Shown piece by piece: positions 2,068-45,683 of a stretch of 64,000 nt of DNA; the first letter of the stretch is position 1, and each line of letters opens with the position of its first letter. The notes below the pieces were generated by a model. It ran no database searches, was not told the DNA's origin, and saw nothing but the letters and a program-made list of their open reading frames with translations. A program made the translations under genes and the position numbers. Source of the DNA: Stegostoma tigrinum (lineage: Eukaryota). Location: NCBI RefSeq assembly GCF_030684315.1, contig NC_081370.1, positions 37,962,728 to 38,026,727 on the forward strand. The letters are read 5' to 3'.

Positions 2068-2260
2068 AAATCAAACAAAAACAGAAATTGCTGGAAAAGC
2101 TCAGCAGTTAGTGTTTCAGGGCCAGTGATCTTTTCAGAGTTCTGAGTGAATGGCAGATTTGAGGAAGGGTCATGGGACTCAAAAAGTTAACATTGATTTG
2201 CCTCCATAGATGCAGCCAGACCTGCTGAGATTTGCCATCACTGGTTTTTGTTTCTGGATT
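2068..2260. mobile_element. Old fold-back PLE-terminus mini-element (family B)
   Basis: AAACAAAAACAGAAATTGCTGGAAAAGCTCAGCAG pairs imperfectly with CTGCTGAGATTTGCCATCACTGGTTTTTGTTT. Confidence 0.65.
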
Positions 2261-4276
2261 TAAGAGTTGTTTTGTGAATTTGGTTAGCTTTCTTTGCTCC
2301 TGCCTCCCAAAAGAAAAAGGGAGAGCCTAGGTGGGGAGCAAGGAAGAACAGTGGAAATAAACTGACCAAGAAAGTGAATGAAATGTCAGTGCTGAATGAC
2401 ATGAGAGTGAGTTCATGTGTGTGCTTGTGCCTGCATGTGTATGGGGTGAGTGAGTGATGGAAAAAATACCCCATATTATCCATAGCATAAATAAAACAGC
2501 AATAACTAAAATCAAAATTTAATCTGAGAAATAGAAGGGCTGAATAATCCAGGGAAGAAATTTTTCACTCATCACTAGTAACAGGAGAAGAGAGAAAACT
2601 TGAGTAATAGGAAATAACTTTTGGCAACTCAGGTTGTTTAGTAAAATCCCACACTCCTGGAGAGCTGAGAATGATGCATGTCGACAGTGCACATTAAAGT
2701 AGTATCATTAAACACAACATGAACAATGCTGATAGGAACCATCTGGTGACTGACATTATCAGGAACAGTCTCATGGGGGAGGATATTTTAATTTGGCCCA
2801 TGCAAGCAAGGTGTAACTTTCCAGTTGAACAGGCTGTACGCTAGATTTTGACAAACATCATTTAAAAAAAATTGTTCACTATACATGAAACTTGTTGACA
2901 AGACAACTCGTGTACTGTCACCCTTAGAAGGTTGGTGCATCGAAAATGAACAATTAGAGATTTCATGCGACGACCCCCCACATTTCTGATGTGGAGCTGC
3001 CTCCATGCCTGAACCTGGAGATGAGAATTCTCATTCTGGTTGGTCCAAGGCACTTTGTTTTATTTTAAATAGTATAAGTCAACAGCTGTGCTGTAGCAAG
3101 AGCAGTCAATTGGCGCACAGTATGCTCCCACAAACAGCATTGGGAAATAATCAGTTAATTTGTTAATTTTTTTATTGTGTTGGCTCAGGGATAGATAATG
3201 GGCCAGGAGTGGTCTTCTGCCCCTACAATTGTGTCTTGGAACATTTGCTGGACAGTCTTTTTACTAATGGCATCTCCAACAGTGCAGCACTCACTTGGTA
3301 CAGCACTTGGAAAATCAGCACAGATTAACAGGGTGAGGCTTGAACCCATGACCTTCTAACAAAATAGAAAAAGAGTGCTACCACTGAGTGGGTAATAGTG
3401 TCAAAAATTCATGAGTGTCACAAGTAATGCCATAATTTTATTGTCTACAATGATTAAATTACCCTCAAGATGATGTAGTGAGTTGCTTTCTTGAACCACT
3501 AGGTACAAATTGCAGAGTACTGTTCAGAAGGGAGTTCCTGGATTTGACAGTGAAGGAACAGCAATATATTTCCAAGTCTGGATGGTGTGACTCGAAAAAG
3601 GAACTTGCTGATGGTGGTGCTCCATTGCACCTATTGACCACGTCCTCCTGGGTGACAGAGACAGAGTGTGGAGGGTGTTGTCAAAGCAGCCTTGGTAAGT
3701 TGTTGCAGGGATTCTTTTAGATAGTATATACTGCTGCCACATTGCACTGGTGATTTTTGGAATGTGTCTTTAAGTTGGTGGATGGAGTGCCAATCAAGCA
3801 GGCTCCTTAGTCCTCAACTTTGAGCTTCTCAACTCCTCTCGATGGAGCTATTCTCCACCTGCCTGGGTCTCTGCATCTTCTCAGTCTTGACCTTTACATT
3901 GCAGATGGAGGACAGGCATGGGGGAAGTCACTAGATAAGTTACCTAGCTTGGAATTCCTCAGAGTCTGACCTATTCTCATAGCTGCAGTATTTCAGTGGT
4001 TGGGTCTAATCCAGTTCAGTTTCTTGCAAAGACAGACCACAAACCCTGAGCACCCCCCGTCTGGAAGGCATGATCAGAATAGTAGGCTTCCCTCCCAAAA
4101 GAATGACCAAGTAGTAGCTTCACAGTCAACTTCTGCTATCAGCTAATAAACTGACGTGAATTATTGAACACATTACATGGCTGAGAGTGCACACTCTGGG
4201 CCTTGGATACACCATGGTACCCATCTGCACAGACATCTACTGACAACCAACAACAGAAAGGCAATGTTGTACATAC

Positions 4277-4394
4277 ACATCGACAGGAATCCTGAGCAGG
4301 GTGGGAAGCAGCACAGAAACGTCAGACATAGCAAGTAGGCGGGGTTCCAGCAGCTGCAGAATACACAGGCCAGTGCTGAACATTACATTGATAC
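4277..4394 (-). CDS. TBC gene exon 9 (GINVMFSTGLCILQLLEPRLLAMSDVSVLLPTLLRIPVDV)
   Basis: Strong acceptor TTTCTTTTGCTTTTCACCCCCTAG. Phase 1 completes the Gly after IWD...D and resembles the usual C-terminal TBC helix. Probable donor GT|GTATGT. Follows a 21-kb intron; absent from the ORF track. Confidence 0.85.
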
Positions 4395-5569
4395 CTAGGG
4401 GGTGAAAAGCAAAAGAAATAGGACTTAAAAAAAAAACAGCAGTAATTCAAACTAAATAACGTTCCCTCCCATCTCTCAGCTAGGGTAGCATGTTTTCCAC
4501 GGAGTCAGAACTTTAGGTCTAAATCCTAAACACAAAAGACTGTGAAATCACCTTGATAACAATCAAATATGGTGTTTATCCACATCAAACTGAAATGCAG
4601 CAATAATTTGTTAATGCTTTAAGATCAGCTTGCACCAGGGTGTCCTGTTCAATCAAACTCTGTAATCATATTTAAAAGGAGACACTGCTTAATGAAACTT
4701 AGGTAGTTTCTACAAAATATCAAGCCGTTCAGCTCCTTCCCTTCTGTGGGAAGGCTTTGAACAAACTTGAATATATTTGCAGGGCACTGTCAGAGAAATG
4801 GGGGAGGAGAATGCTTATCTTTAAAACACAATGAAAGGTTGTGGTCTGGAATGTGCTACCTGAACAACTAGTAGAGAGAGATTCTGGAGTAACTTTCAAA
4901 AAGGAGTTGGATAAATACTTGAAGGGAATAGCTTTGCAGCACTGCAGGGGAAAACGCAGAGGGGACAACTTATGCCTTTTCAAAGAGCTGGCACAGACAT
5001 AAATCAAATAGGCTCCTTCTGTACTTCAGGATTCTATAATTTGTCCCTCAGAGGCCCTCACCCTGCAAGCAATCTCGCTCAGTGGAATTTTGACTTGATC
5101 ATGCAAACAGAGTCAGACTGCAGTACAAACGGGTTTTACAAACTGTCAAAGTCTGTTTTCTGGTGTTTCCTCCACATCTTGGTGCACACCCTCAAAGTAA
5201 TATTGCTCCTCCAAAAATTCCACATTCTCCTTACTCACCACGCAAAAACATTTTTCCCCAAACACCTACTATTTCTTTCTTGACAAGGGAACAATGTCAA
5301 AAATTAGAGTAAGCCCATTCAGAGTGAAACCAGGAAGTTATTACTCCCACACAAAGGGAGTCAAAGTATGATTTTTGTTTTAAAACAGTGCAATCAAAAT
5401 CAGGACCATCTAGGAGAGGATTGGCCCAGATTATAACATAAACAACACGGAGTGGCCATTCAACCCAACAGATCCATGCTGGCATTAATGTTCCATACAA
5501 GCTTCTACTCAACCCATCCCCCATCACCCTATTAGTATATACCTACTCCTTTCTGCCTCATGTTTATCC

Positions 5570-8500
5570 AGAATCAGAGTTGTAGTGTAATACAGTATGG
5601 AAACAGGTCCTTTGGTCCAAACTGGTCTATGCTGGCCACGGAGCCCACCCAGCTAGCTCCAATTGCCCACATATTTGGTTCATTTCCCTCTAAAAACTCT
5701 TCCCATCCATGTACCTATCCAATTGTCTTTTTAAAAAATGTTGTTATTAGCACCTGTCTCAACTACTCTCTCTGGAAACCCATTCCATACAGCACCATCC
5801 TCTGCATGAAGAGGTTGCACCCGAGGTCCTTCTTAAAGCTTTCCCAACTCATCTTATACTTGTGCCGTCTAGTGTTTTACCCAGGGATGGGGAATTGAAG
5901 ACTATGCATTCATCCTATCTATGCCCCTCATGATTTTACACACCTGAATAAGATCACCTCTCATTCTCTTACATTCCTTGGAATAAAGTCCCATCACTGA
6001 CAACCTCTTCCCATGACTCAGACCTACTAGTCCTGGCAACATCCTCGCAAATCTTTTCACACTTTCCAGTTTAACTATGTCTTTCCCATTATAGACAGTG
6101 GCCAAAAGTGTGCACAATAATCTAAGTGCAGCCTCACCAACGACTTACGCAACAATAACAACTTCCCAACTCCTATACTCATTGCCATGACCAATGAAGG
6201 CCAGCAAGCTAAACGCCTTCTTCACCACCGTGAATACCTGCGATGCTGCTTTCAATGAAATATGTACTAGTACTCCTAGACCCCTGTTCCACACACTCTT
6301 CAGGACCTTACCATTTACCATATATTTCGTACCTTCGTTTGACCTTCCAAAATGCAAAACCTCATTTATCCACATTAAATTGCATTTGCCAACCTTCAGC
6401 CCACTTCCCGTTCTGATCAAGATCCTTCTGTAATTTTTGATAATCTTCCTCACTATCAACAATACCTCTTAATTTTTTATCACCTGCAAACATTCTAATC
6501 ATGCCTTGTATATTCACATCCACATCATTTATGTAAATAACAAATAACAAAGATCCCAGCACCAACCCATGAGGCACATACTAGTCACAGGCCTCCAGTC
6601 TGAGAAACAACCTTCAACCATCACCCTCTCCTTCCTACCATCAAGCCAATTTTGAATCCAATTAGCTAGCTCTCCCTGGATTTCATGCAGCCTAACCTTC
6701 ATGACATGACCTTGTCAAAGGCCTTACTAAAGTCCATAGGATAGGCCAGTGGACAATATCCACTGGCCTCTCCTGATCTATCATCTTGCTTATCTCTTGG
6801 AAAAATCTAAAAGATTTGTCAAACATGAACTCCAGGCACACAAATCCATGTTGCTAATTGCTAATCAGACCTTGACTGTCCAAAGGAGGTAGACAAAAGA
6901 GGAGGCTGGAAGAACACAGCAAGCCAGGCAGCATCTGGAGGAAAGGAGAAGTCAACATTTCAGGTATTACCCTTCTTCAGGAATGGATGTGGTGCGTAGA
7001 GGGAGCTGCAGATAAAGAGGGGTGGGGGGGGGCACAGGGGAATGGCAGTGATAAGGGGCTACTAGTAGGTACAACCTGGTTTCTTGGTGGGAGGGACAAA
7101 TCTAGTTGGTAGCTAGATGGGAGAATCAGTAGGTGGAATGGAAGGTTTGATGGGGGTGGTGCAAGGGGCAGGGAGCAGAGACTGGAAAAGGGAGCTGGGG
7201 ATGGGAGGGAAGGTTATTTGAAATTAGGGAACTCAATGTTGTCACCCTCCAGGATGCAGGGTGCCCAGGTGGAAGAAACAGTGTTGTTCTCAAATTTGCA
7301 TTCTGAATCACCATGACACTGGGGAAAGTCAAGGACAGACATGTCAGATGGGGAGTGGGGTGGGGGCACGATGGAGTCGAAATGGGTGGTAACAGTTATG
7401 GTCCAGGCATAGATGCTTGGTGTTAAGCAAGCATCTAGTCCATGTTTGGTCTCACCGACGTAGAGAAGACCACATCAGGAGCACTGGAAGCAGTAGACTG
7501 GACTGGTGAAGCTCTGTCTCACCTGGAAGGACTCAGCAGATGCGACAAAGATAGAGGAATTAAGAAAATGTGATGGAGATTTTGCAGGATATAGGGTGGG
7601 AGGTAGTGTAATCTAGGTAGCGATGGGAATCTGTGGGTTCATATTAAATGTTGGTCTGTAAACGGTCACCAGAAATGGTGATAAAGAGGTCAAGGAAGGG
7701 GAGGGAGTGGCTGAGCCCAAATGAATTGAGAGCAGGGAGGAAGTTGTTAATGAAGTTGATTAACTTCTCCAGTTCAGTCTGGGTGCATAATGCAGTCAGT
7801 CATCGATGTAACGGCAGAAGAGTTGGGGAACAGTACAAGTGTTTGCACTGAAGAGGGATTGTTCGAAATAACCGACAAAGAGGGAGGCATAGCTGGGGCC
7901 CATGTGAGTGCCCATGGCAACCCACTGGATTCAGAGAAAGTAGGAAGAATTGAAGTAAAAATTATCATAAGTGAGGACATAAGAGCAGAGTGTTGGTGGG
8001 GTCGATGAGAGAAGAGAAAACCAAGGGCCTGCAGGCCATCCTTTTGGGGTATAGACGTGTATAGGAACTGCGTATACACAGTAAAGCTGAAGGGCTGGGG
8101 AGGAGGGGCAGGGGAATGGCAGGGCATAGTGTCCTGGATGTCAGTGGGGAATGCCTGGACCAACTGAGAGAGAATGGAGTTGAGGTAGGAAGAGAGGAGT
8201 TCGGTGGGGCAGGAGCATGTGGAGATGATGGGTCAGCTGGGTGAATTGGGCTTGTGGATCTTGGGGAGCAGGTAGATCTGGGCAGTACAAGGCTATCCAA
8301 AATGTTGGTTGATCCTGTCTCTCAGTTTCCTCTCCAGTAACATGCCTACCACTGATGTCAGACTCATTGACCTGTAGCTTCCTGGCTTGTCTTTGCTATC
8401 TCTCAAGCGATGGAACAACATTAGCCACCTTCCAGTTTTCTGGAACTTCACCAGTAGCTAAAGATGAAGCAAAAATCTCTGCAAGAGCCTCTGCAATTTC

Positions 8501-8610
8501 TTCCCAAGCCTCCCACAATGTCCAAGAATGGGCTTGAACAGGCCCAGGGGATTTATCCACCTTAATGTGAGCTAAAGGCCCCCAACTCTTCCTCTCTGAT
8601 AACATGTACA
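5570..8610 (-). mobile_element. CR1 LINE 3' part, split by the PLE at 6893-8320
   Basis: KSPGP...WKVANVVP, P.GLVLGSLLFVIYIND...FAGD, and MRGDLIQVCKIMRGIDR. Confidence 0.85.
6893..8320 (-). mobile_element. Decayed PLE (RT and EN remnants) nested in a CR1 relic
   Basis: RT remnants in ORFs 7774-8163 and 7965-8300. Terminus motif GCTGGAAGAACACAGCAAGCCAGGCAGCATC at about 6905. CR1 sequence resumes on the far side. Confidence 0.75.
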
Positions 8611-9225
8611 TTTACAATGCATTTATACCATTTGCCTGAACCATTCTGGTAGGACCAAGTTCTACATTCTCAACGCTCTTCTGGTAAAGAGGTTTCATCC
8701 AAATTCTCTGTTAGATATATTACCTTATATTTGCGGCCCTGAGTACTGGCGCCAGATAGCAAAGGTGAAAAATCTTCTCCCTCTGCCCGTGCAAACTCTT
8801 CTGTAATCTTAAATTTCTCAAATCACCCCTCAGTTTTCTGTATGCTGAAGAAAAAAGCTCCAACCGATGCAGACTTTCCTAATGGCTATACCTTTCCCTT
8901 CTGTCTTCCTAATACTGTGCACTGTACCTGCAATTGCTGCAGCATCAGCAGAATCCAGCATTGATGTTGGCCATTCTCCAACAACTACATTTTCCCATGA
9001 TCCAGCTTCACAATCTCTTTAGGAAGTGTTATATTTTGACAACTGCTGATGTGATGTCCTTTCCAACTCTTGAGCTGATTAGTGTCAGGGCTGTTTTCAA
9101 TTTGCTTTATCTGTGGATCACAGACAACTGTCTTCAGTTGCAAAAACCCTCTGCACAATGTCACCGAGTCAAAAGTAGTAGATTGATTGAGATTGGACTG
9201 TTATTTAACTATAGTCCTAGTGTCA

Positions 9226-9410
9226 TAAACACAAAAACAGAAGTTGCTGGAAAGCTCAGCAGGTCTGGCAGCATCTATGAAGAAGAAAAAAAAAATCTGC
9301 ATTAGCGTTTCGGGTCTGGTGACCCTTCATAAGTGCTGCAAGACCTGCTGAGCATTTCTAGCAACTGTTTTTTCCAATGTACAGCATCCGTAGTTCTTTC
9401 AGTTTTTTTT
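9226..9410. mobile_element. Fold-back PLE-terminus mini-element (family B)
   Basis: GTTGCTGGAAAGCTCAGCAGGTCTGGCAGCA pairs with TGCTGCAAGACCTGCTGAGCATTTCTAGCAAC. Hammerhead stem II remnant GAAGGGTCACCAGACCCGAAAC on the minus strand. Confidence 0.75.
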
Positions 9411-10229
9411 CCCCTGGAGTACAGCACAGAAACAGACCCTTCAGTCCAACTCCTCCATGCAGGCCAGATATCCTAAATTGAACTAGTTCCATTTGCCAGC
9501 ATTTGATCCATATCCCTCAAAACCCTTCCTATTCACATACCTATCCAGGTGCCTGTTAATGTACTTGTAGAAGACTCCACCACAAATGGAGAGAAATAGG
9601 GGACAACAGTGTCACTTTTCTGCATTTTCCGAGAACCTTATCCCCCAGTTACATCCATACAGGCCCAATGGGAGGGGAAGCAGTTTTAAATACATTCTTA
9701 GGAAATGAATGTGGAGAGGTGAATGAAGTAGTGGTGGGTGGCCATTTTGGAAACAGTGATAATAATAATGTTGGATGTCATAGCATTATGAAAAGATAAA
9801 ACGGATGTTCAAATTCTAAAGTTTTGTGTGCACGTGTTGCAAATGGCAAATTTTCCAAAGTGGTGATAACTAGCAAAAATAGACTGAATACAGCTCCTTG
9901 AAGGAAAATCTGAGGCATTCAACCAATGCAGTGTTGTGGACAGCGTGGACATGTCCCTGCACTGTGTTACTGCCAAATCTAGAGCACTCAATTACCCAGA
10001 AGCAAACAGGGCAAGAAAAAGCAGAAAGTAAAACTTGGGATAATCTAAAAAAAACCTTCAGGAATTTTGAGCATAGAAGACACAGAGGTGAAGTGAAACA
10101 GGGAATTAAGAAAGCAAAAAAGAGGATACAAAAAAAGCAAAGGAAAATCCGTACGTATTTTATTTGTGCAATGAGAGCTAGAAAATGACGAAGGGAAGGT
10201 GGATAAATAACAGGGCCAGATGAATTGTA

Positions 10230-11490
10230 TATAATGCTGTTAAAAGAAGGCAGAGAGAAAATAGCAGATGCTCTGAGCATTTTGCAATGGAGAATTAGAG
10301 GTCTACAACACATTGCACCATCACTCAAAAATGATGCTTGAAACAGGTCAAATAATTAGACGCAAGTCAGTATGACCTCTGTGGGCAAATTACTAGAAAT
10401 AATACTGAGATAGGATTAACTTAATTAAAAAGGTAAAGATAAATCAAGGGCAGCAAGATTTTAGTTAGTGGAAAGTAATGTCTTACAAACTTAATTCAAT
10501 TTTTTCAGGGAGGAACAAGGAGTGGTGACGAGGTTTGTGTAGTCGATAGCATCTATACGGATTTCAGTAAGGCATTTGACAAGGTTGCAAATGGCATACT
10601 GAACAGGAAAGTAAATTCCATGGGACACAGTAATGTGACAAGTTGCGTCCAAAATTGGATCTGTGACAGCAATAAAGTCTGTGCAACTGAAAAGCAATTT
10701 TTAATGGCATACCATAGGGCTCAATTTTATTATGTATTAATGACAGACTTGATTGTGGGAGGCATGATTGGGAAAATTTCAGGTAACAGAAGTTGGCAAG
10801 TAATTACTAATGAAAAGAATGGCTGTCGACTGCAGAATGGTATCAATGGTTTGGATGAGTAGATACAGAAGTTTTAAATGGAATTCAATCCAGAGAAATG
10901 TAAGGTTATGCAAAGGAGGGGAGCCACAAAGTGGAGAACATTCGGGGGGGGGGGGGGGGAGAAGTACAGGAAGAGAGAGACCTTAAGTATATATCCACCG
11001 GCCCCCGAAGGTAGCAGCACAGGTAGAGAAAAGAGGAGATTTACACCAAGGATCGAAAATAGCAGCTATGAGGAAAGATTGGATAAGTTAGGGCTATCCT
11101 TAGAGCTGGGGCAGCTCACAGATGCTTTAAAAATTGAGGGGAATAAAATCATGAGTTGGATGGAGTGGACTCGGAAGACATTTTTCCCCTGGTGTAAGGA
11201 TCAATTACCAGGGGGCACAGGTTAAAGGTACAGGAATTAGAGGGGTCATGAAGGAAAACTTTTACACGCAGAGAGACTTTGCAGCTTGTCTAGTTGGAGG
11301 CAGACACCTTCAACCTACTTAAGAGGAATCAGAGTCTGTACCTATAGCACTGTAACCTGCAAAAGCTACACAGACCAGGAACCAGAATGAGAGATTAGAA
11401 TAGATGGCTAGTGTGCCCTGGCTGAATAAGTGTGATGAGCTGAACGATCTCTGTCTGTGCAGTCAATTTTCCTTTGGTTCTACATGAATG
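10230..11490 (+). mobile_element. CR1 LINE relic
   Basis: DFSKAFDKV, MEFNPEKCKVM and SYEERLDKLGL remnants. Confidence 0.75.
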
Positions 11491-11845: not shown

Positions 11846-12068
11846 AACAAAACACAAAAAACTGTCAAAATTCAGCAGGTCTGGCAGCATCTGAGGGGAC
11901 AAAACATAGAGTTAATGTTTCAAGCCCAGTCACTGGACAACACTTGTGAAGAATCACTGGCCTTGAAACATTAACTCAGTTTTCTCTACACAGATGCTGC
12001 CAGACCTGCTGAGTTTCTCCAGGATTTGTTTCAAATCACCAGCATCTGCAGTTCTTTGCTCAAATTTC
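11846..12068. mobile_element. Fold-back PLE-terminus mini-element (family B)
   Basis: CAGCAGGTCTGGCAGCATCTG pairs with CAGATGCTGCCAGACCTGCTG. Near-TSD ATGGCTGATCTGA / ATGACTGATCTGA at 11833-45 and 12069-81. Confidence 0.8.
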
Positions 12069-23024: not shown

Positions 23025-23264
23025 ATAGTAGGAACTGCCAATGCTGGAGTCCGAGATAACAAGGTGTAGAGCTGGATGAACACAGCAGGCCAGGCAGCAG
23101 AGGAACAGGAAAGTTGATGTTTCGAGTCTGGACCCTTCTCCAGAAAAAAAAAGGGTCCAGACCTGAAACGTCATTGCCCATAGTGTTCAGGGGTGTCAGC
23201 TTTCCTGTTCCACTGATGCTGCCTGGCCTGCTGTTACCATCCAGCTCTACACCTTGTTATCTCA
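23025..23264. mobile_element. Fold-back PLE-terminus mini-element (family A) with a 25-nt insertion
   Basis: GAGATAACAAGGTGTAGAGCTGGATG... pairs with ...CATCCAGCTCTACACCTTGTTATCTC. Confidence 0.85.
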
Positions 23265-24209
23265 GCTTCAAGGCTTGCAACATAATCTTGGAAGAGTCCA
23301 CAGCCTAACCTCCTTTATCGTTGACTTTCCCCTCAAACGTGGTATTTGTCAATACCTGTGCAGCGCTCAGCAATTTGTCGTCAGGTACTGAAACAATCAA
23401 GACATCAACATTCAAAACCTGCGTTCATAAGTGGCAAAAACAAAAGTTAGCTGAACCATACAGCTCAGTTGTGAGGGTATGCTTTGCTACTGTAGCAGCT
23501 TTCATTACAGGTGTTAGAGAGGATGGAATTAAAAAGACCCCATGCCATCATTTTGAATTACAGGAGGGTTGACTAACCAGGGTGAACATCACACAAAGCA
23601 GACAGGAAAAAAAAAAAATCAGACCATTATTACAATGTTGTTTGTGGAAACTTATGGTGCGTGGATTTCTTTCTGCATCTCTTAGGTTGCAACACTGGGC
23701 ACACTCCAAAAATACTCAACTGGGTCTGAAGTGCTTTCAGACATTGTGGTCATGTGCTTGAAATACATTTATTTTTTTAAAAATACCATTGTGGAATCTG
23801 CCTCCAACATGCGGGTGATCACCACTGGCCCAAAAATTACTTGGGCCACAGTGATTCCAAGAACAAGTTCCAAGTCAGAAATTCTGCAGCAAATAACTCA
23901 TTCATCTCCCAATTCCCCAAAACTTGTTCACTATTGACAATGTACGAAACAATATGTGAGATACTTCCTACTTTGCTTTGTGGCGTACAACACTTGCGAA
24001 ACCTAGCACCATTCGAGAGAGAATGGAAATTGCTTCATTGGTGCACCACCTTAAATATTGACTCACGTCACCATCAGTGTATACCATCTGGAAGATGCAC
24101 TGCAGCAAGTCATCAAGGATTCTTCAACAATATCTTTAAACCTGTGACCTTTACTGGAAGAGAGACTAAAGTAGATAAATTCCCGTCCAAGTTATGTGGA
24201 ACATACAAA

Positions 24210-24531
24210 GAATTAGAATCCCTACAGTGTGGAAACAGGCCCTTTGGCTTAGCAAGTCAACACCGACGCTTGGGTCATCCCAACCAGACCCTTCCACCTA
24301 TGGCCCACCTAACCTACACACCCCTGAACACTATGGGCAATTTAGCATGGCCAATCCACCTAGCCTGCACATCTTTGGACTATGGGAGGAAACCAGAGCA
24401 TCCGGAGGAAATTGATGCAGACACAGGGAGAACGTGTAAACTCCACACAGACAGTCGACCGAGGGTGGAATTGAACCCAGGTCCCTGGTGCTGTGAGGCA
24501 GCAGTGCTAACCACTGAGCCACCGTGCTACC
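24210..24531 (-). mobile_element. HE1/V-SINE-like tRNA-derived SINE
   Basis: GTGGCTCAGTGGTTAGCACTGCTGCCTCACAG head, GGGTTCAATTCC B-box, V-domain, and CR1-like tail. Confidence 0.88.
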
Positions 24532-30735: not shown

Positions 30736-31397
30736 AAAACCTCACTCATTGGCCAATGTCATCACTGCCTTGAAAGGCCTATTCTAGCGTTGGGCAATAG
30801 CGTCATCAAACGTCCTTCTAAGATCAAAAGTGCAAGCATTAGTGACATTCCCGAACCCTAATATTGAGTGAGAAATCATGAGTTTTTTTTTGGTGGGGAT
30901 TGGGGGGGCAGGAGTGTTGTTTCCACCACAATTTTGTACGAAAATAACAGCATGTAGCTGCTTCACTGATGAACTTGCAACAAATGAAAGTCAAAAGAGC
31001 ATGATCAGGGTAGTGTCAGAATGTTGAGACAGGCTGAAAGCAATTTTGGTGTTTGCTGTCCCCAATTTTTGCAAACCCAAAGGTGATCATTGACACTAGT
31101 GACATGAGGCAAAAGTGCAAACATTACTAGAAGATGGGTTAGGCATGGGGAAGCCAATTGAAAGTTTTTCTAAGAAATTAAATCAATATATAAAATAAAA
31201 TTTCAGTGGAAAAATAAACCCTAGAATTAATATTAGCTGTTATAGATTGATCATAAAATCATCTTTGTGGAAAAATTAAAAAAAAATATCAGACTATTTC
31301 AAAGATAATGGGAACTGCAGATGCTGGAGAATTCCAAGATAATAAAATGTGAGGCTGAATGAACACAGCAGGCCAAGCAGCATCTCAGGAGCACAAA

Positions 31398-31433
31398 AGC
31401 TGACGTTTCGGGCCTAGACCCTTCATCAGAGAG
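31398..31433 (-). ncRNA. Minimal hammerhead ribozyme motif, sense to the TBC pre-mRNA
   Basis: Identical core at 31402-31429. Confidence 0.75.
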
Positions 31434-32187
31434 GGGGATGGGGAGAGGGAACTGGCACACCTCCTCCCTCACCCCCATCCCAGGCCCCAAGATGACATTC
31501 CACATTAAGCAGAGGTTCACCTGCACATCTGCCAATGTGGTATACTGCATCCACTGTACCCGGTGCGGCTTCCTCTACATTGGGGAAACCAAGCGGAGGC
31601 TTGGGGACCGCTTTGCAGAACACCTCCGCTCAGTTCGCAACAAACAACTGCACCTCCCAGTCGCAAACCATTTCCACTCCCCCTCCCATTCTCTAGATGA
31701 CATGTCCATCATGGGCCTCCTGCAGTGCCACAATGATGCCACCCGAAGGCTGCAGGAACAGCAACTCATATTCCGCCTGGGAACGCTGCAGCCATATGGT
31801 ATCAATGTGGACTTCACCAGTTTCAAAATCTCCCCTTCCCCTACTGCATCCCTAAACCAGCCCAGTTCGTCCCCTCCCCCCACTGCACCACACAACCAGC
31901 CCAGCTCTTCCCCCGCCCCCCACCCACTGCATCCCAAAACCAGTCCAACCTGTCTCTGCCTCCCTAACCTGTTCTTCCTCTCACCCATCCCTTCCTCCCA
32001 CCCCAAGCCGCACCCCCAGCTACCTACTAACCTCATCCCACCTCCTTGACCTGTTCGTCTTCCCTGGACTGACCTATCCCCTCCCTACCTCCCCACCTAC
32101 ACTCTCTCCACCTATCTTCTTTACTCTCCATCTTCGGTCCGCCTCCCCCTCTCTCCCTATTTATTCCAGTTCCCTCTCCCCATCCCC

Positions 32188-32224
32188 CTCTCTGATGAAG
32201 GGTCTAGGCCCGAAACGTCAGCTT
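32188..32224 (+). ncRNA. Minimal type-I hammerhead ribozyme motif
   Basis: CUGAUGA-A-GGGU(CUAG)GCCC-GAAAC-GUC. The palindromic ACGU suits a dimeric stem III; helix I is weak. Confidence 0.75.
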
Positions 32225-32365
32225 TTGTGCTCCTGAGATGCTGCTTGGCCTGCTGTGTTCATCCAGCCTCACATTTTATTATCAGACTATTTCAATGCAG
32301 TTTTGCAGCCCTATCACCTAAACACTGTCTACATTGTGAGAAAGGAAACAAAGTAATTGTTGATG

Positions 32366-32550
32366 AGATAGTAGGAACTGCAGATGCTGGAGAATCTGAG
32401 GTAACACAGTGTGAAGCTGGATGAACACAGCAGGCCAACCAGCAGAGGAGCAGGAAGGCTGACATTTCGGAAGGGTCTAGGCCTGAGCTTTTCTGTTCCT
32501 AAGATGCTGTTTGGTCTGCTGTGTTCATCCAGCTCTACACCTCGTTATCT
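32366..32550. mobile_element. Fold-back PLE-terminus mini-element (family A)
   Basis: Inverted arms meet at TTTCGG|AAGGGTCTAGG. Degenerate 16-bp TSD AAAGTAATTGTTGATG / AAAGTAATCGCTGATG at 32350-65 and 32551-66. Confidence 0.85.
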
Positions 32551-33699
32551 AAAGTAATCGCTGATGCGAGCGAGGGAGAGCGAGGGAATGAGTGCATGCA
32601 AGTGTGCCTCAACTTAAAACATTTCTACACGTTTTAAAACGGCATCCCAATCCACTTCACGTATTATGAAAGTATGTCCATTATTATTACTTTTTTTTAG
32701 GACTACTGCTTAAAGATCCAAAGATGATGGAAGTACAGGTGTATTTTTGTTTTAAGGAAAGTTTAGAATTAGGATAAGTCAGATTTTATTTTAAAACAGT
32801 TACATGGAAATAACATTACAAGTTAACTGCTTAGATTTGCTCAGTTTATGGTTGTGAGGAGTTATGGATACTTGATATTGTTTGCCTGATTTACAGCCTG
32901 TTGAGAGAAGTAATCAAGCTCATCATCAGCCAGTTTTGACAGGTCTACTTAGAATCTGGTGTAAGAGCTTCCAGGAAGCTTCTGGAAGACTTCCTCACAA
33001 TATCTTGTTAATGAACTGTTTGTGAGAAAGATTCCAGTAACAATTACGTGTCTAACAACACAAGTCGGAGAGTTCCAAAATGTCATATCAAACACTATCC
33101 ATAATACATCATCTCATTTAGCTTTCTTCACAAAACAATTACTGGGATCAAAGCTCTTTCTGAACAGGGAATGTTCCTTCCATTTTTCTTTAAGTGATGG
33201 GTGCACTCATCCGTTATAAATATGTACCCTTTTAAATAAATAAGCTCATTGGCAGATTTGTATTGTGAATTGAATAGATTGGTATATTTCACTGGCTATA
33301 AGGATAATTGGGTAAAACATTTTTGAAAACTCCCTAGTAGAATAGCAAGACTTGAGAGAGTGAACTCCTCACACCTTACACATAACAGATGCTTACTCTT
33401 CATTCACTTTAAAATTTTTATTTATAAAAAGACTGCATTGCAGACTCTACAACTCCAAAAAGAAAACTTCTCAGTGTGTTCCCATATAAATGAGCATAGG
33501 TGAGCAGCCAATTAATACTCACCACTCATACTTACTATCCAACAGATATACAATTAGCACTCACTGAAGGAGTGCTGCATGGTCATGGATGTTGCTTTAT
33601 AACATTAAATTGAGGCCACATTTGCTTCTCTGATAGAAGGCTTCATAGCATTACTTTGAAGAAGAAACAAAGGAGCTCTGCCACTGTTGTGATTAAGCT

Positions 33700-36396: not shown

Positions 36397-39300
36397 CTGC
36401 AAGAAACAGAAATATTACAAAGAGTACTTAAAGGAATTGTCTGTTACATATTCCATAAAAATCTCCATATTTGTGCTCATAAAAATCACTAGCTTGTGGC
36501 TTGGTTCCAATAACTGCAGAAGAGATGGTAAATTCTAACCACACTGTTGTTTTTTTCAAAAAAAAACAACAGGAAAGACTGAACAGGTTGACATTACCCC
36601 CCAACCCCAGAAAATACTGAGGGATTACCCAATAGGAACATTAAATTCAACAGAGTAGATACAGATGTTTCTGTGGGTCATCAAAATGATGGGACAATGG
36701 GGGAATAAAGCAATATAGATTTCCTGAAACAAGTACATGTTGACAGTTAGAGACATGAACATATGAAAATATGAATGGATAGTCTAATATCACATTAGTT
36801 TGAATAGGATTGGATGATACAGTCACGTGTACAAACTTAGACACGAATTATGCAACCAGGCTTGAGTAGGGGTCACGGTGAGTAAGGTGTAATTTTTTAT
36901 TGGAAAATATAATCTGTTAGAATGGTCAATTGCAAGTTGACTGTGAAACCAAATTTAAACCTTGGCTGTTGTAATAAAATTTGACCCGCACACCATTTAC
37001 TTGATGTGTACATCTCACACATGAATAAATATTTAAAGAGCCAGAATCTTGTCTGGTCTTAGAGGAAATAAAAGGGTTAAACACGCTCTTTCAAAACTTT
37101 AGGGGGGCACGTATTAAAAAAAAGCATTTTTTTGTGACTATTAGAAATATCAAAAGGAATTACCAAGACTGATGAAAGATAAAAGTTCACTCCCACCTGA
37201 AGCTGTCACAGAGGAACAAATGTTATCAAGGGAAGATAGAAAGGAACACAAGAATATACAGTATTGATAGAATGAGATGGAGTAGAGTTGAATACAACCA
37301 TAGAGCAGTTGAGCTGAATAGCAGATATCTGCGTGTTATAATTCTGCTGCCCACATCCTAACTCATACCAAATACTATTAACCCAGCACAGTTGTGTTCA
37401 CTGACCCAGACTAGCTGAAAAAGTCCATCAATACTTGAAGTTTAAAATTCTCATCCACATTTTCAAATGTTTCCAATGTCCTTGCTTGGCTTTGTCTCTA
37501 ACATTGCTCAGTCCTACAACCCTCTGGGATCTGCGCTCCTCCAGTTTTAATGATGTGCACACCCCAACACTAGCATTACCAGCTGTGTAGTCAGTTACTG
37601 GGAAACTAAGCTTTGGAATTCTCCCTGCAAAAAATTTCTCCTTCATTTACAAGAAAAAGCTCCCAAAAACCAGAGATGCGTATAAGTTTGAGTAATTACG
37701 CTCCTGCAAAACATCTTTAAATGCTATGCCAGAACGAAATGATTTTTTTCAATAACCAAAATACTAATTAAACATCAAATTTATCAAATGATTTCATTGT
37801 TGCAAAAATAGAAAAAATAAACACGTAATCAACAGTATTTAATCGAGGGGACCTTCTTATTCCTCTAAAAAGTGAAATCTGAGGCAAAGAAACCTGAAAC
37901 AAAACACGTGTGTTGGGTTAGGGCTTGAAGTCACACATTTTGGGGTATGAATCCACTTTTGCTGCAACTGTCAGTTCAAACACAATTGGCTCCGACTTGC
38001 TGGGTGTGTGAGCCAATACAGTGGGAGGAGAGCAATTGGGTGAACAGTCATCACTTGGACCCGATTAAGGTTCAAGAAAGAAAGTGAAGCAACAGCAGAA
38101 AATCAGGCGAATTCAAATAGACACAAAGAAAGAAGGAAAAATTGACGAGGCGACAGAAAGGAAACAAGAATAACCAACATCTGACATTTTGAAATCAACA
38201 ATGTTTTAGTTATAGGAATCAGACTAATGGCTTAAATTGTTTGCTTTTTGAGCTAGAAGAGTTCATTAGTATTGCATGAATTATCAATCTATTAAAGGCT
38301 CTCAACTTCCAGCCATAATTTTGCTGCCCCTCTCTTTACCCATGCACTTGTATCAATTAACACCCTAGTCCTGCACTTCCTGTTTTGTTCTGCTTGTATA
38401 CCAGGCTTTCAAGCTAAATTCAGCTGTCAGAAAGGTGCAATGCTAACAAGGTCAGCATCCCGAATTGGCTTAAGGTAGCAGTTGATGAGCTGTTTTATTG
38501 ATCAATGGCAGCATACAGGTACACCCAGTGTTAAGGAAGGATTTCCAATATTATCTCTCCTGACCTTGCCACTCCAAACAGACCTGCATTGATCTCATGT
38601 TCATTTTTTTCATTGCAGCCCTGTCTATCCCAACAGTTCCTACTACCCTACTTCGTATCACCAGTCCTGTGATAATTCAGCTGTACTGCTCCCTCTTGAA
38701 GCAAAACAATGTTTGGCCACAGACTGTCTGCTGAGGACTCAAGTCAAAATACTCAGTGACTGGTTCACTTGTTCCACCCACATTTTCAGCACTCCTCCCA
38801 CCCCTTTTTCACATGCATCAGTCAACCATTGACCAGACAACACACCATTTATGTCAGCGTGGCATTGAGTAGCTGTGCTTGTGTTGTACTAGAGTTGGTA
38901 GCGTAAAGTTAAATCCTTACTTAAATTATAATTACTGATCAGTTATGGTCAACTAGCATGACACCAATCTGCAAATACTGAACATTATTTCAGACAGCCT
39001 ACTACAAACATGTTGTGCAATCAAATACATGGATTACCAATCACCAGGGAACATAGGTTCTGCTTCTCAGGTCACATTTAACATACTTTGTCATATATGC
39101 CACCACACAAGAACAGAAGAAACAGAAGTAGGTGCAGGCCATTCAGTCCGTCCAGTCTGGTCCTGCCACGGCATGACCAATCTCCTGTCCTATTTTCCCA
39201 AGGATCAAAAAAAAATTTAATTGATCTCAATCTGTAACGTACCCAGTGACCAAGGATCCAAAGTTCTTTGTGGTAAAGAAATCCAAATACACATACACAC

Positions 39301-39411
39301 ACCCCTTGATGGAGAAATGTTTCCTCTTAGTCCTGTACGTTTAGCCCTTTTGAACTTCATCACCTGTAAAGCAGGAGCAAAACCATCAAGATTACAACTT
39401 AGCCACCTTAC

Positions 39412-39604
39412 CAACATCTAGGACAATCTGTCTTAATGTTTCAATGGTGATCTCAGGGTTGTAATTAGGCATCAGGTTGGGAGCTGCACTGTCCGTTTCT
39501 GCCCTCTCTTTGTCTGCATTGTCCAGTGTAGAAATGGCCACCTGCACCCCATACTCATTCACGCCAAGGCTTGCCAGCTGACTGCGCAATTCCTGCACAT
39601 ACTC
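39412..39604 (-). CDS. TBC gene exon 4 (EYVQELRSQL...TLRQIVLDV)
   Basis: TTGCAG acceptor and G|GTAAGG donor. 193 nt, phase 0 to 1. Supplies IxxD of the IxxDxxR arginine finger. Confidence 0.92.
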
Positions 39605-41189
39605 CTGCAAGAAACGTTGAGTTGCTTTTAATCCAAATCATCAAGTTAATTTGTCCTCAAGCATTTCTCAATAAAACACCAGTTAGGCCTCAGCTTGAGC
39701 ATTGCGTTCAATTCAGTGCAATACATTTTAAAAAGAATAGCAAACTCCAAGGGAAGGTGTAGAGGGCACTTACTTTCTCAAGAGACGGAGTGTGACAGTT
39801 AGGTCTAACAGACAGGAGATGTTGTAAATGTTCGCCTAAAATCAGGAAAAGTTATGGAGAGATGTACACAAAAAGAGTGCTAAAAATTGAGAGATTGTTA
39901 CAGAGGAAATAAGGGAAACCCTCTTTCGAGTGGCTGAAGATTAGTAACTAAAGGACAACATTTTGAATTTTCGCTCTTGGGAGACAATTCCTCATCTCCA
40001 CCTTGTGGATGACGGCTTACTCCAAGATTATGGCCTCTGGTCCTAAATGCTCCCATAAAGGGGGAGAAAAAACAACCACTTTGCATCTAACTTGTCAAGC
40101 CTAAGTATCTCATGTTTCAATAACATCATCTTTCATTCTTCTAAGCTCCACTTAATACAGACCCCACCTACTCAACTTCTCAGAAAATCCTTCTATACCT
40201 GTGATCAACCTAGTCAATCTTCTCTCGACTGCTCCTTATGCCAGTACATCTTTCCTTAGGTTGGAGGACAAAAATCATTCGAGGTATGGTCTGGCTAGCG
40301 CCCTGAATAGTTTTAGGAATACTTCTCTATTTTTATACTCCATTGTCTATGAAATAAAAGGGTCAATGATGAATGTACCTTTCCTATTACCTGCTGAATT
40401 TGGATGCTATCTTTGAGATTCATGCATAAAAGGACACACTAACCCTTTGTGCTGCAGCTTTCTGCAGTCTTTCACCATTTAAATAATAGTCAGCTCTGCA
40501 TTTCTTCCTGCCAAAGTGCATAACCAGACATTTTCCCCATGTTACATTCCATCTACCAAATTTTCATTTACGTGATCTACCAGTCTATGCCACTCTGCCA
40601 AATGTCACCTTCAATAATTGCCTACCCACTTTTGTCTCATCTGCAAATTTGGTGGTGGCATATTCATTTGTCATTTGTCATTCATCATTCATGTCACTAA
40701 TATAGAATCACAAAATTCTTATAGCAGGCCATTCAACCCATCTAGTCCACACTGAACTTCTGAAGAACAGCCCAGCTTACACTATCCCTGTAATACTGCA
40801 TTTCCCAAGGCTAACACATTTAGCCTATTTACAATACATTTTGAGAACGCTTGTGACCTTACCACACTTCCCTGTTGTACTTCACTTGTTGTGGTTTACC
40901 ATCCTGAAAATACTCTCTCTACCTCTACTGTCTATTAGTTAGAGGATCCTGTCTATTCTAATAAACTATCCCTAATACCATGTTTTACCTTATTATATAG
41001 CCAATGTACGGTACCTTATCAAACGTCTTTTGGATTCCAAATATATTACATTGATTGTTTTCCCCTTATCTGTTTCCTCAAAAGAACTTCAATAATTGAG
41101 ACAGTGTTTGACTTTTATGAAGTCATGCTGACTGTTTTATTAACTAATCTCTCTAAATACACATCTAATGCATGCTTTTTAAACAGATT

Positions 41190-42330
41190 ATTTTAACAGT
41201 AACACACATGGATTTCCAGAAAGCTTTTGTTACAGTGCCACACAGATACACAATGAAACATATGCATCATGGTATAAAAGGGACCGTAACTATATGGATG
41301 CAAAATTGGCTGAATGATTGGAAAAATGTCACCGTGCACTACTGTTCCTTATCTGAAGGTAAGTTTATAGTGGAGCTCCCCAGGGGTTAATATTGGGACC
41401 CTTACTTTTCCTGGTGTATATTCATGATCTCAACCTTGGTGTGTAGAGGGACAATTTCAGGGTTTATAATTGACAAAATTTGGAAGGATTGTAAACAGTG
41501 AGAACAGTGTAGAACTCAAAAGGACATTGACAAGTTAGTGGAGTGGGCAGATAGGTGAGAGATGAGGTTCAATGCAGAGAAGTGGTGACAATGTACTTTG
41601 GTCTAGAGAACATTGAGACATGATATAAAATAGAAGGTATTCTAAATTGGGTGCAGGAGCAGAGGGGTGTGTGTATATGCACACAGATCATCAAAAGGTG
41701 GCAAGAAAGATGGAGAGAGAGCAGTTAATAAAGCATACAGTATGCTCAGCTTTATTAGAGGCAAAGAGCACAAGAGTAAGGAGGTGACGTTGAACTTATA
41801 AAAGGCACATGTTAGACCTCAGCTGCAGTACCATATATAGTTGCAGGCAACATGTTATAGTAAGCGTGTGAATGCACTGGAGACAGAGCAGAAGCAATTT
41901 ACAAGAAAGGTTCCAAGAATGGTAACCTTCAGTGATGAGGACAGAAAAAGTTGGGACTGTTCCCCTTGGACAGGAAGAGGTAGAGAGAAGATTTGATACA
42001 GGTTTTCAAAATCATGAGGGGGCTGGATCTTGCTCATGAAAGAAGTGAATGAGGGGAACATAGATTTAAATTGATATGCAAACAAAGCGAGAGTAATGCA
42101 AGAATAAAAACTTCTTCCCGTACTGTGAATAGTTAGAGCATGGAATGCACTGCCTGGAATTTTGGTGGAGGCAGGTTCAATTGAGGCCTTCAAGAGGGTG
42201 CTTCGTGAATATTTGGTTAGAAAGAGTGTGTAGGGTTTTTGGCAAGGCAGGAGATTGGTACTAGGTGTTAGAACTGGTAAATGTACCATAGGCTGAATGC
42301 TTCCTTCTGCCCTGTAACAATTCTATGACA
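41190..42330 (+). mobile_element. CR1 LINE relic
   Basis: MDFQKAFVTVPH, PQG.ILGP and RPQLQY remnants, plus a CR1 tail. Confidence 0.75.
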
Positions 42331-43490
42331 GACGCTAATTGAACTGGTCCACGGTTAGCTGTTCTTCATCTTTTTTCAAGAGTGAAACATTGGAATGGAA
42401 TTGAATTAGTTTTGTTGTCACATGTACTCAAATGAGTAGAATAAAAAGTTTTAGTCTGCACGTTACAGAGCAATCTTAGGTAGAAAATTATCTAGGTAAA
42501 GATACTTTAGATCAAAGTTTTCTAATTCTCTAGGACATTTCCATGATCTAAAGATTTTTAGAAAATTACTACTAGTGCACCTACCAGCTCTGTAGCTACT
42601 TCTTTTAAAACCTTAGGATGTGAACCATCAGGTCCAGGAAACTTATTGGTTTTTAGCCCCATTAATTTCCCCCAAGTAAGTTTTCTCTTGCAATAGTCAT
42701 CATGTTTCTTTCCTCCCCCACTTTAGTTCCTTCATTATTTAGAATTTTTGGAATACTATTCTTGACTTCTGAAGTGAAGACCGATGCAAAATATTTATTC
42801 AACTCACCAGCCATTTCCTAGTTCCCCATTATTATTTCTTCAGTCTCATCCTCTAAAGGGCCTTGCAAATTTAGCTTCTGATCCAAGTTTCTCCCTCTCA
42901 AATTAAATTCAACCATGCTACGGCCACTACTTCGGAACAGACTTTTTACTCATTTCAGTTAATCAGACCATCTTACTACATCATGCCAGATCCAAAATAG
43001 CCTGATCCCTGGTTGAATCCACATTATTCTAGAAAACTGTCCCAAATATACTATGAAATCTTCCATGTGACTACTTCTGTCAATGTGGTTTTCCCAATGC
43101 ACATGAAAATTAAGGACACCATTTGATTAATTCACTCGATTTTTGCCCCCCTGCCCAAGATGTCATGATAGTATTTAGAAGATTAGCAGGGAAGTGCTCA
43201 GCAACTCTTTGGTAGATATTTGTTCAAACAACAGCATTAAAATTGTAGCAGTGCTGCATATAGAAGAATGCTGTGTGCATATTAACTACTGCATTCAGTG
43301 CCACTGTATTACTACTACTACTACTAATAATAATAATATTTCATTGTCTGTAAAGTATTTTTGGAGATCCAAAAGTTGTGAAAAAGACTGTATAGTGAAT
43401 ATCTGTCTCTTTTCAATAATAATGTATCCAGTACAATATTTTTAAAAACCAACACCCATGCACCATAGATCAAAAAATAGCTTTCCTCAC

Positions 43491-43598
43491 CTGGTAGGTG
43501 TGGGTACTACTCTCTTTAACTAGGTCACTATCCAAAAGGCATTTCCACAGACGACCACGTAGTTTGATGGGAACACCATCTTCAAGCAAGATATGCAT
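43491..43598 (-). CDS. TBC gene exon 3 (MHILLEDGVPIKLRGRLWKCLLDSDLVKESSTHTYQ)
   Basis: TTTTTCAG acceptor and CAG|GTGAGG donor. Contains TBC motif A (G-V-P-x-x-L-R-G-x-L-W). 108 nt, phase 0 to 0. Absent from the ORF track. Confidence 0.93.
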
Positions 43599-44044
43599 CT
43601 GAAAAAGGTTTCAGTTAAAAACAACTGAACACACTACAAAATGATCATGAAGTAGAATACACAAGGAGTGAATTATTTTGCACATTAACAGAGACAGCTT
43701 TTCAAAAAGACTGAACTTTTTGTTAATGGATGAGGATCAGTTTTCCCCTCTCTAATACAGAACAAAGTTGGATCCAGATTACTTGGTAATCCTTATCACT
43801 GTTTAAATATCAAGAATGTCCAGATGTATGTCTTAATAAACTGTAGACCAGGAGCTCATATCGCATTTGAGCAGTTTTTTAAAAAAAATGTTTGAAAACA
43901 CTAAGGTGGGATTGCTAAGTGACATTTATTTGGTTGGATCACATAAAAGAAAAAAAAATCATCAAGTTCACTGTAGCTTTTTAGTGAGGAAACCACCTTA
44001 CTCAGTCTGCACCCAGTGTGACTCCAGACCACACTAATGTTATC

Positions 44045-44280
44045 ATCGTTAGCAACTCCTTTGTCTGTCCAACTGTTGTTCTCTCTCTTTAGGCTCTATC
44101 CTATCATTTTCTCCCTACCCCACTCTCCCTCCCTATTCTTTGCATTTAAACTGATGTTTTCCCAGCCACAATCAGTTCTGAGGAAGGGTCACCAGACCCA
44201 AAATATTAACACTGATTTTTTCTTCACAGATGTTGCCAGACCCGCTGAGCTTTTCCAACAACTTTGTTCTGGTTCTACAA
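44045..44280 (+). mobile_element. PLE 3' terminus (family B) with a degenerate hammerhead
   Basis: CTGAGGAAGGGTCACCAGACCCAAAATATTAAC followed by CACAGATGTTGCCAGACCCGCTGAGCTTTTCC. Confidence 0.7.
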
Positions 44281-45468
44281 AAATGTGGCTTGCATCATAG
44301 AAAAGAAAAATGCTGAGGATAATGGAAACCTGAAATAAAAACAGTATGTGCTGGAATGAACCAAAGTAGAATCATACTGGAGTCAAATGTTAACTGTTTC
44401 TCAGTATATGGACTGGCCATGTTTCTCCAGCACGGGCTTGATCCTAAAACTATTAAAATGGCTTAGCAAGTCACCCTGTTGTACCAAAACTATACAAACC
44501 ACCCAGATTGCAGGGTACGTACACCTACCATCACCTTCTCAAAGACCATGGTGTTCACCCTCGTGCTGTGAATCCAATAACATGGTTATTATGATTTGTC
44601 AATAATTCCAATCTCTATCAATAAACCAAAGCAGACCCAAGGCATGAGGTGATGAAATCCCAAATGCTGGAGAGCTCTGAGAATAATAGATCAAAATTCA
44701 CCTGTTCCCTACATGTTCATTGCACTCTTGTATTGCATCATCACACTCTACCTCCCGTCCTAAAATATGATATACAATGAATCCATCTACTGTGCTTGTT
44801 ATTGAACCAGCACACTGACCTCTCATGTCTCCAGAGATCCCATCGAATACCCTTCACTCACTGAAAATTCTTCCCATAGATTAGTTTTGAATTTATCCCC
44901 TTCAAAACTCAGGCTGATGTCCTCTGGTTCTACTATTCCAGACAAAGTGAAACAATTCGTTGCGTTTCACTGCACAATATTTAGCATAAGTAATGCTGTG
45001 TCATATTGTCTGCTTTTGTGGTCATCATGCCTACACCATTGCTGCTTTGTGACCAACCACGAGAGAGCGATCAGTGCAGGGACTAGTCACCATCTAGTTT
45101 TGTCCACCCTTCTTGGGTTTTGGAATGACCTAGCCGCTGCCAGACCCTTGCCTGCTGACATGGCGAGAGATTAGAAATTTGCAGGCTGACAATACATGGG
45201 ATGAAGTCAATTGCTTCCATGTCATTATGTACACAATGAACTAGACCATTCAAAATGGATCTTCTTGAAAGGGACCGAGGAGCTGGCATTGAGACTATCC
45301 AATATCTTCAGGGGAAAAAAAAAAAGAGAAACAGTCTATAAATTCCCTCCTCGAAAAGGAGAGAGCACACAAGCATCTTTTAGCTTCTTTTTACAGGTCA
45401 GACAAGACCTGAGCTTCAATCACTGTCTCCATTTGGGAGATAATGGCGGTCAAGAAGGAACATGAACT

Positions 45469-45683
45469 GTGTGGAGCTGGATGAACACAGCAGGCCAAGC
45501 AGCATCTCAGGAGCACAAAAGCTGACGTTTCGGCCCTAGACCCCAAAACTCTCTCTGATGAAGGGTCTAGGGCCGAAACATCGGCTTTTGTGCTCCTGAG
45601 ATGCGGTTTGGCCTGCTGTGTTCATCCAGCTCCACACTTTGTTGTCTTGGTTTCTCCAGCATCTGCAGTTCCTATTATCACTC
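45469..45683. mobile_element. Fold-back mini-element made of two inverted PLE termini (family A)
   Basis: Arms 45469-45543 and about 45562-45637 are reverse complements. TSD AAGGAACATGAACT at 45455-68 and 45684-97. Confidence 0.9.

Follow-up and report, generated by a model that had tools for sequence, protein, structure and literature searches.

Short palindromic insertions in Stegostoma tigrinum as probable stubs of Penelope-like element integration, with one arm from each of two reverse-transcription start sites

What makes one genome accumulate short, coding-free palindromes built from nothing but the end of a retroelement? The question is raised by a 64,000-nucleotide stretch of Stegostoma tigrinum DNA (NCBI RefSeq assembly GCF_030684315.1, contig NC_081370.1, positions 37,962,728 to 38,026,727 of the forward strand), hereafter the window, which holds six palindromic inserts, each made of two inverted copies of the hammerhead-bearing terminus of a Penelope-like element (PLE) of one of two families, A and B. 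An original prediction, made from the sequence alone, had placed the six inserts where we find them, and proposed that they are formed anew by PLE reverse transcriptase (RT) stalling or switching template at the ribozyme, or else belong to a self-amplifying non-autonomous hairpin retroposon. Here we report that the two arms of such a palindrome end at two different, defined sites downstream and share a defined edge upstream. We suggest that the palindromes are probably stubs, left where a PLE has copied the front of its RNA at both edges of a cut in the DNA.

Positions in the terminus are counted from the first C of the hammerhead core, taken as 0. On this scale family A 3' ends gather at about +92 (untailed) and about +125 (bearing an optional 30-40 bp tail). 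Copies were collected from a random sample of 65 stretches of 10 kb (650 kb), picked by round coordinates, and from a set of young family A junctions retrieved by one strict genome-wide pattern that allows at most 48 bases between its anchors; the pattern found 9590 places (control, 0), of which the first 40 were analysed. Individual loci are labelled L041, L103 and so on. The random sample contained 146 family A termini, with 29 head-to-head and 0 tail-to-tail pairs, and 58 family B termini, with 12 head-to-head pairs (three with gaps of 76-110 bases) and again 0 tail-to-tail. Rough extrapolation from the 650 kb gives ~140,000 A pairs and ~59,000 B pairs, and sequence related to family A makes up 9% of the sample. 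Short coding-free pairs numbered 28 there vs about 7 long inverted pairs, and head-to-head pairs occurred in all age classes, up to 100% identity with the coding element.

The pairing of downstream ends is close to a rule. One tailed and one untailed arm were found in 27 of 29 random A pairs and 39 of 40 young pairs, which against even odds gives P ~8e-7 and ~4e-11, respectively; in family B the same arrangement is clear in 8 of 12 pairs. Unpaired family A ends were untailed in 50 cases, tailed in 35 and intermediate in 3. Long inverted pairs obey the rule as well, the window's own example at 31303-32283 included. The two inverted copies originally described are of unequal length, one arm usually bearing a tail of ~33 nt. 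The attribution to PLEs is borne out by self-comparison of the window, in which the family A arms match the end of the coding PLE at 46278-48480 and those of additional window copies.

The arms share an upstream edge too. In the young pairs the commonest start is -4 and just 1 of 80 arms extends beyond -6; of 33 young paired arms from the random sample, 12 begin at -6 to -1 and 0 at -7 to -12. Genome-wide, 5601 pairs have both arms reaching +1 with at most 12 bases between them, and 18 of 34 unpaired B ends begin at -8 to +1, with 2 extending further. In both families the main edge, about 4 nt upstream of the core, lies 29-30 nt below a TATA-like box: among 44 long A copies of 67-100% identity, 43 carry the hexamer between -33 and -37, and among 5 long B copies 4 carry it at -33. 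An initiator-like A stands at -4 in 5/5 long B copies and in 7/44 long A copies, the older ones, and young family A has a C there, within a pyrimidine run resembling a TCT initiator. Consensus promoter motifs set the start 29-31 nt from the TATA box. Since the spacing of TATA-like box and initiator fits, we take -4 as the predicted transcription start and the arms as run-off copies; the arm edge is thus probably the RNA 5' end.

Several points weigh against a start at -4. The assignment comes from motif spacing; the C of young family A is not a canonical initiator; and hammerhead stem I of family B itself begins at -4, so that this family cannot on its own tell the readings apart. The pattern, with its 48-base limit, selects against arms that start well upstream of -6; as partners of long copies, arms at -24, -26, -89 and -123 do exist; and later deletions may have shifted some junctions. 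In Drosophila virilis the Penelope promoter is described as internal and TATA-less (PMC2377424). Two other causes of the edge were considered and rejected. An intron end has been mapped to helix I in D. virilis (PMC4209133); as for a splice acceptor here, family A lacks an AG at the edge, and in family B the AG lies within the arms. A polyadenylation signal on the antisense strand, overlapping the TATA-like box, would place an end at about -45 to -65, not at -4. Contigs of two runs cannot show starts; the second run had many loose ends at 46370 (-1), which were not counted as independent.

The edge could instead mark RNA structure rather than an RNA end, with RT stalling or switching template at the folded ribozyme as first proposed. 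We consider this unlikely, though it fares best among the alternatives. Junctions do gather within ~20 nt of the core, a second cluster at +25 to +34 lies on the 3' side of the fold (5/33 paired and 4/15 unpaired young starts), and in family B the edge falls where stem I begins. Travelling 3' to 5' on the RNA, an enzyme should, however, halt before the fold, and the main class lies past it: its arms cross the whole core and stop some 4 nt upstream. Family A has a stem I of only 2 bp, yet its edge is also at -4; read-through for hundreds of bases is common, with 25 of 88 unpaired A ends reaching -400 or beyond; and minimum-energy folding of the monomer terminus did not form the hammerhead. Stalling at the ribozyme thus does not fit the main class; a minority class does begin at the ribozyme, at its predicted cut.

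Canonical hammerhead topology places that cut after +27. A gapped genome-wide pattern found 710 pairs with both arms starting near it; 39 of the first 50 are exact joins through the 4-nt palindrome at +28 to +31, vs 4 through +23 to +26. Exact joins genome-wide number 771 at +28, a class known from its 20-28 central bases, vs 154 at the +12 palindrome, a count that permits CpG decay, and 25 at the +55 palindrome. The excess at the cut site is real. Self-cleaved RNA serving as template would account for it best, a reading to which we give about even odds; if true, the peak would be a first sign that a minimal PLE ribozyme cleaves in vivo. On the other side, the +28 class could reflect stalling at stem I or a later deletion that spans the hairpin tip, and for the element of the lizard Anolis carolinensis PMC11167929 describes RNA-seq without reads ending at the hammerhead cut and hammerhead mutants that inserted normally in vitro.

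Were the two arms copied from one another? Once microhomology is removed, 15 of 39 young pairs (1 of the 40 was left unclassified) have an untailed arm that outreaches the tailed arm upstream by 3 bases or more, the tailed arm extends further in 12 of 39, and in 12 of 39 the arms lie within 2 bases of each other. Within each of those 15 pairs both arms carry private bases, so neither can be a copy of its partner, and copy-back is impossible there; nor is either arm of the long pair at 31303 a copy of its partner. The young junctions comprise 11 blunt joins, 17 with added bases and 12 with microhomology.

Sequence variants point the same way. At a T/G site, with 3 of the 40 young pairs omitted for a truncated arm, 4 of 23 pairs were discordant where 0.11 were expected from background; the site marks a true source variant, present in 4 of 44 long copies, and background transversions ran at 8/1702. 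In L145 and L147 the arms differ at 3-4 linked subfamily sites. Three of the 23 pairs were concordant for the rare allele (G/G), vs ~1 expected under independent choice, which indicates a single RNA or a single source for most pairs; pairs with two templates are a minority. A further set, used for subfamily alleles, consisted of 43 pairs of at least 90% identity, 29 picked by similarity to the window copy and 14 at random; it left out pairs below 90% identity, the long-arm pair L075 and one duplicate of that copy. Discordance at a C/G variant at +17 (11/38) was rejected as evidence for two templates: the variant is absent from 88 unpaired random termini and enriched because the 29 pairs were chosen by similarity to the window copy. 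Taken with the private bases, we conclude with good confidence that the two arms are templated independently.

Self-priming on an antisense template, suggested for rotifer PLEs (PMC3846280), would have one cDNA or antisense template fold and be copied back, with the endonuclease trimming the tail from one side. The arms do mostly share alleles, 2-4 bases of microhomology occur at 10 of 40 junctions, and the +28 copies centre on a 4-nt palindrome. Set against these are the mutual private bases, the junctions that are blunt or carry added bases (28/40), the two subfamily alleles joined in some pairs, and the long pair at 31303, whose tailed arm reaches -26 and whose untailed arm reaches -731, into the GIY-YIG coding region. 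Self-priming is already contradicted for the main class and may still account for the cut-site class; as a general explanation we hold it to be improbable.

Each palindrome appears to record its own insertion event. Junctions differ between copies, as had been noted: 36 of the 40 young junctions are distinct. Target-site duplications (TSDs) are 10-18 bp long in 36 of 40 young pairs, not short and fixed as for a DNA transposon, and the TSD-match score was at least 9 in 37 of 40 vs at most 8 in 40 mismatched flank pairs. In the allele set, the two arms have subfamily alleles in common (4 discordant pairs at site +77 vs 22.5 expected), and tailed and untailed arms have like allele frequencies at 11 variable sites, with no fixed difference. 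The commonest junction, a perfect blunt -4/-4 join, occurs 1035 times genome-wide; such a join would arise repeatedly wherever an RNA that ends at -4 is copied in full twice. Varied junctions, and arms that follow the subfamilies of the coding element, agree with the proposal of de novo formation by the PLE machinery, and we are highly confident that palindromes arise in this way, one insertion each.

The second original suggestion, a hairpin retroposon transcribed whole and amplified from master copies, fits the very high copy number and the sharing of one junction by 1035 copies and of another by 771, the +28 class. These common junctions are, however, those expected to recur from defined RNA ends; most junctions differ; the arms track every coding-element subfamily with no fixed left-right differences; and the pairs have no upstream TATA-like box. 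Amplification from masters is accordingly very unlikely. A miniature inverted-repeat transposable element (MITE) mobilised by a DNA transposase would likewise be short, hairpin-forming and very numerous, and is already refuted by the spread of TSD lengths and the tail rule (unequal ends in 39/40), along with variable centres, arms up to 100% identical to the terminus of an RT-coding element and a continuum with long coding inverted pairs.

Based on these observations, we propose the following course of insertion. A transcript would start at about -4, driven by a TATA-like box that lies at -33/-34 within the 3' untranslated region of the element itself. The GIY-YIG endonuclease would nick both target strands ~14 nt apart, a stagger that yields a TSD of ~14 bp; nicking and extension of both strands has been seen in vitro for the anole element (PMC11167929). 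Each target 3' end would then prime a cDNA within the RNA, one starting at about +92 and the other at about +125, and this double priming would place the products head to head. Where the sites at the front of the transcript are used, the cDNAs would run off the RNA 5' end after ~95 and ~130 nt; use of a later copy in a tandem transcript would give long arms. End joining may then unite the cDNA ends head to head, accompanied by trimming, by microhomology or by the addition of a few bases, most pairs coming from one RNA or one source subfamily and some from two. A minority would use hammerhead-cut RNA and be joined through the 4-nt palindrome whose first base follows the cut. In its most specific form, coordinated double priming, a single complex would extend both strands from one RNA start site each and copy to a capped 5' end, set by TATA box and initiator 4 nt above the hammerhead, sometimes using hammerhead-cut RNA. 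We offer this form tentatively, at somewhat less than even chances; the one-of-each use of start sites seen here stands against the anole element in vitro, for which PMC11167929 gives no strand difference in start site.

The source of the family A arms is still young. The open reading frame (ORF) of the window's coding PLE (46594-48810) and that of L103 both encode RVT_1 followed by GIY-YIG, the two domains falling below the Pfam curated cut-offs (E 3.5e-5 and 0.007), and 329 bases of this family are matched at 99-100% in 40 other loci. L103 holds a full 3658-bp family A unit preceded by an inverted truncated copy and a partial tandem; its unit boundary carries the hammerhead motif, the untailed end (~+92) and the tail end (~+125), and its ORF begins downstream of the tail. 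We also observed that an ATG in the hammerhead core at L103:4260-4305 opens a frame of 14 codons only, a possible upstream ORF (the anole ORF starts inside the hammerhead). In L104 three family A termini stand in tandem 2.6 kb apart, an organisation of the pseudo-long terminal repeat (pLTR) type; this head-to-tail array is of an internally deleted 2.6-kb unit, with an ORF open for ~750 codons across the deletion. Family B is older (~75-90% to its own consensus) and has its own hammerhead with a 5-bp stem II. In L072 a B terminus is linked to the remains of a PLE coding sequence, which shares 46% identity with the C-terminus of family A; no intact B ORF was found. Domain order and structure suggest that the source element of family A is of Poseidon type.

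The family A terminus has the hammerhead core motif and a stem II. An Rfam scan of the window gave no ribozyme match and three weak microRNA-precursor matches caused by hairpins. The hammerhead is thus a predicted one, assigned from the motif and the description in PMC4209133, which reports low in vitro activity for minimal PLE hammerheads.

The six window palindromes vary in age and completeness (Table 1). All fold much better than 40 dinucleotide shuffles of each (z -2.7 for the 2066 element, -8.3 to -18.5 for the other five). Five are among the window's 8 inverted repeats; the 2068 element is missing there because its left arm has an internal deletion. Clear TSDs flank the elements at 32366, 45469 and 11846, with 2 mismatches at the first and 1 at the last, and inspection gave just a 7-bp match at 23025 and none visible at 2068 and 9226. 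The coding PLE has a TSD of similar size, as had been noted (14 bp; 46266-46279 and 48479-48492), and the 14-bp TSD of the 45469 pair lies at 45455-45468 and 45684-45697. That the arms meet at the core in every case holds loosely: at 9226 the right arm starts ~52 nt downstream of it. The right arm of the 23025 element holds a later insertion of ~21 nt near 23173-23196; the 24-base piece at 23173-23196 is identical to 24318-24341, in another repeat.

Table 1. Features of the window discussed in the text (positions on the 64,000-nucleotide stretch).
Feature	Coordinates	Strand	Description
Family B head-to-head pair, decayed	2066..2262	.	left arm internally deleted; arms to about -2 and -5; TSD none seen
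Family B pair	9231..9410	.	left arm untailed (+5 to +95); right arm tailed, from +52; TSD none seen
Family B pair	11846..12065	.	left arm untailed, right arm tailed; TSD 12-13 bp, one mismatch
Family A pair, older	23025..23265	.	tailed left arm to -1; A-run at junction; untailed right arm
Long version of the palindrome structure, absent from the original prediction	31303..32283	.	tailed arm to -26 bluntly joined to untailed arm; 15-bp TSD
Family A pair, older	32366..32550	.	tailed left arm, untailed right arm; 16-bp TSD, two mismatches (32350-32365, 32551-32566)
Long unpaired family B terminus	44045..44274	+	TATA-like box at -33, initiator-like A at -4
Family A pair	45469..45683	.	left arm untailed, from +8; right arm tailed, from -4; 7 untemplated bases between them; 14-bp TSD
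Coding PLE, young, 5'-truncated, source family of A arms	46278..48480	-	RT then GIY-YIG; untailed 3' end
Minimal type-I hammerhead motif	46340..46371	-	core begins 46369; predicted cut between 46342 and 46341
TATA-like box (putative promoter)	46396..46403	-	34 nt upstream of core; predicted transcription start ~46373
Single family A arm	49748..49843	+	about -2 to untailed end; 11-bp TSD

Elsewhere in the window, a Pfam search of 21 of the 35 ORFs of at least 120 aa found PLE domains only. A third, much older PLE remnant, with 31% protein identity to family A and its own hammerhead-bearing terminus, lies at 7148-7531 and 6905-6990. A CpG-rich, promoter-like region at 49000-50400, with a CCAAT box near 50370, has the solo PLE arm at 49748 inserted within it; another CpG-rich region (61700-62230) has several CCAAT boxes followed by a possible splice donor at ~62225, and resembles a host promoter and first exon. 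Outside the window, a family A palindrome lies inside the centre region of a family B head-to-head pair (L048:2899-3373), with similar nesting in L096.

How do these palindromes relate to known insertions? Endonuclease-bearing (EN+) PLEs of the Penelope and Poseidon types are described with an inverted pLTR and a 30-40 bp tail at one end only (PMC3846280, PMC8557442). Our elements have the same head-to-head inverted terminus, one-sided tail and TSD around the whole insert, and L103 shows the textbook inverted copy and partial tandem; unlike those inserts, the palindromes are mostly coding-free with a defined junction edge, and our data contradict the self-priming model of PMC3846280. We view the structure as the short extreme of the known inverted-pLTR-plus-tail insertion. 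The one-sided tail was already known; the strict pairing of two start sites within one insertion is quantified here.

A close biochemical parallel to our two ends is the Poseidon element PAc of A. carolinensis, whose tail was shown in vitro to span the interval from one internal reverse-transcription start site to the other, both just downstream of the hammerhead (PMC11167929). As described there, both target strands are cut and extended and the protein is predicted to be dimeric. PAc differs in that its ORF starts inside the hammerhead, whereas that of family A starts after the tail, and its RNA-seq has no cut-site ends, whereas we see a DNA peak at the cut. The minimal PLE hammerheads of PMC4209133 are similar in having a type-I motif in termini, copies dispersed genome-wide and, in a trematode, opposite-strand pairs 100-700 bp apart; in the passages of PMC4209133 compared here, these pairs are not presented as TSD-bounded insertions and no mechanism is given. 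Non-LTR retrozymes (LTR, long terminal repeat; bioRxiv 10.64898/2026.07.22.740005) are likewise non-coding, hammerhead-bearing and derived from PLE pLTRs, but are described as direct tandem units thought to replicate through circular RNA, unlike inverted pairs made once each. We also noted short direct tandems of the A terminus at L041:6750-8434 and L048:4982-6181, with units running from -123 and -69 past the tail; they have an inverted partner and resemble non-LTR retrozyme arrays in the making.

L1 twin priming likewise starts a cDNA on each target strand and unites the two head to head. L1 cDNAs copy different parts of the RNA, giving an inversion; here the same stretch is copied twice, giving a duplication. 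A literature search that ran without Repbase, Dfam, subscription papers and supplements found no coding-free inverted pLTR pairs with a start-site edge, and neither the cut-site class nor a case against self-priming. The origin of the inverted and tailed structures of PLEs is called unresolved in PMC8557442 and PMC11167929.

In repeat libraries such elements are prone to be misfiled, either as MITEs or as palindromic families of fixed structure. An uninterrupted helix of at least 30 bp is possible in 37 of 40 young copies, and formation of double-stranded RNA from them is physically plausible; if transcribed within host RNAs, the palindromes would supply long hairpins on a large scale. With thousands of insertions that are near-identical yet independent, and a young and nearly intact coding element, the family offers sharp and testable predictions, and the abundance of palindromes can be read as a record of how PLEs, a poorly understood class, insert.

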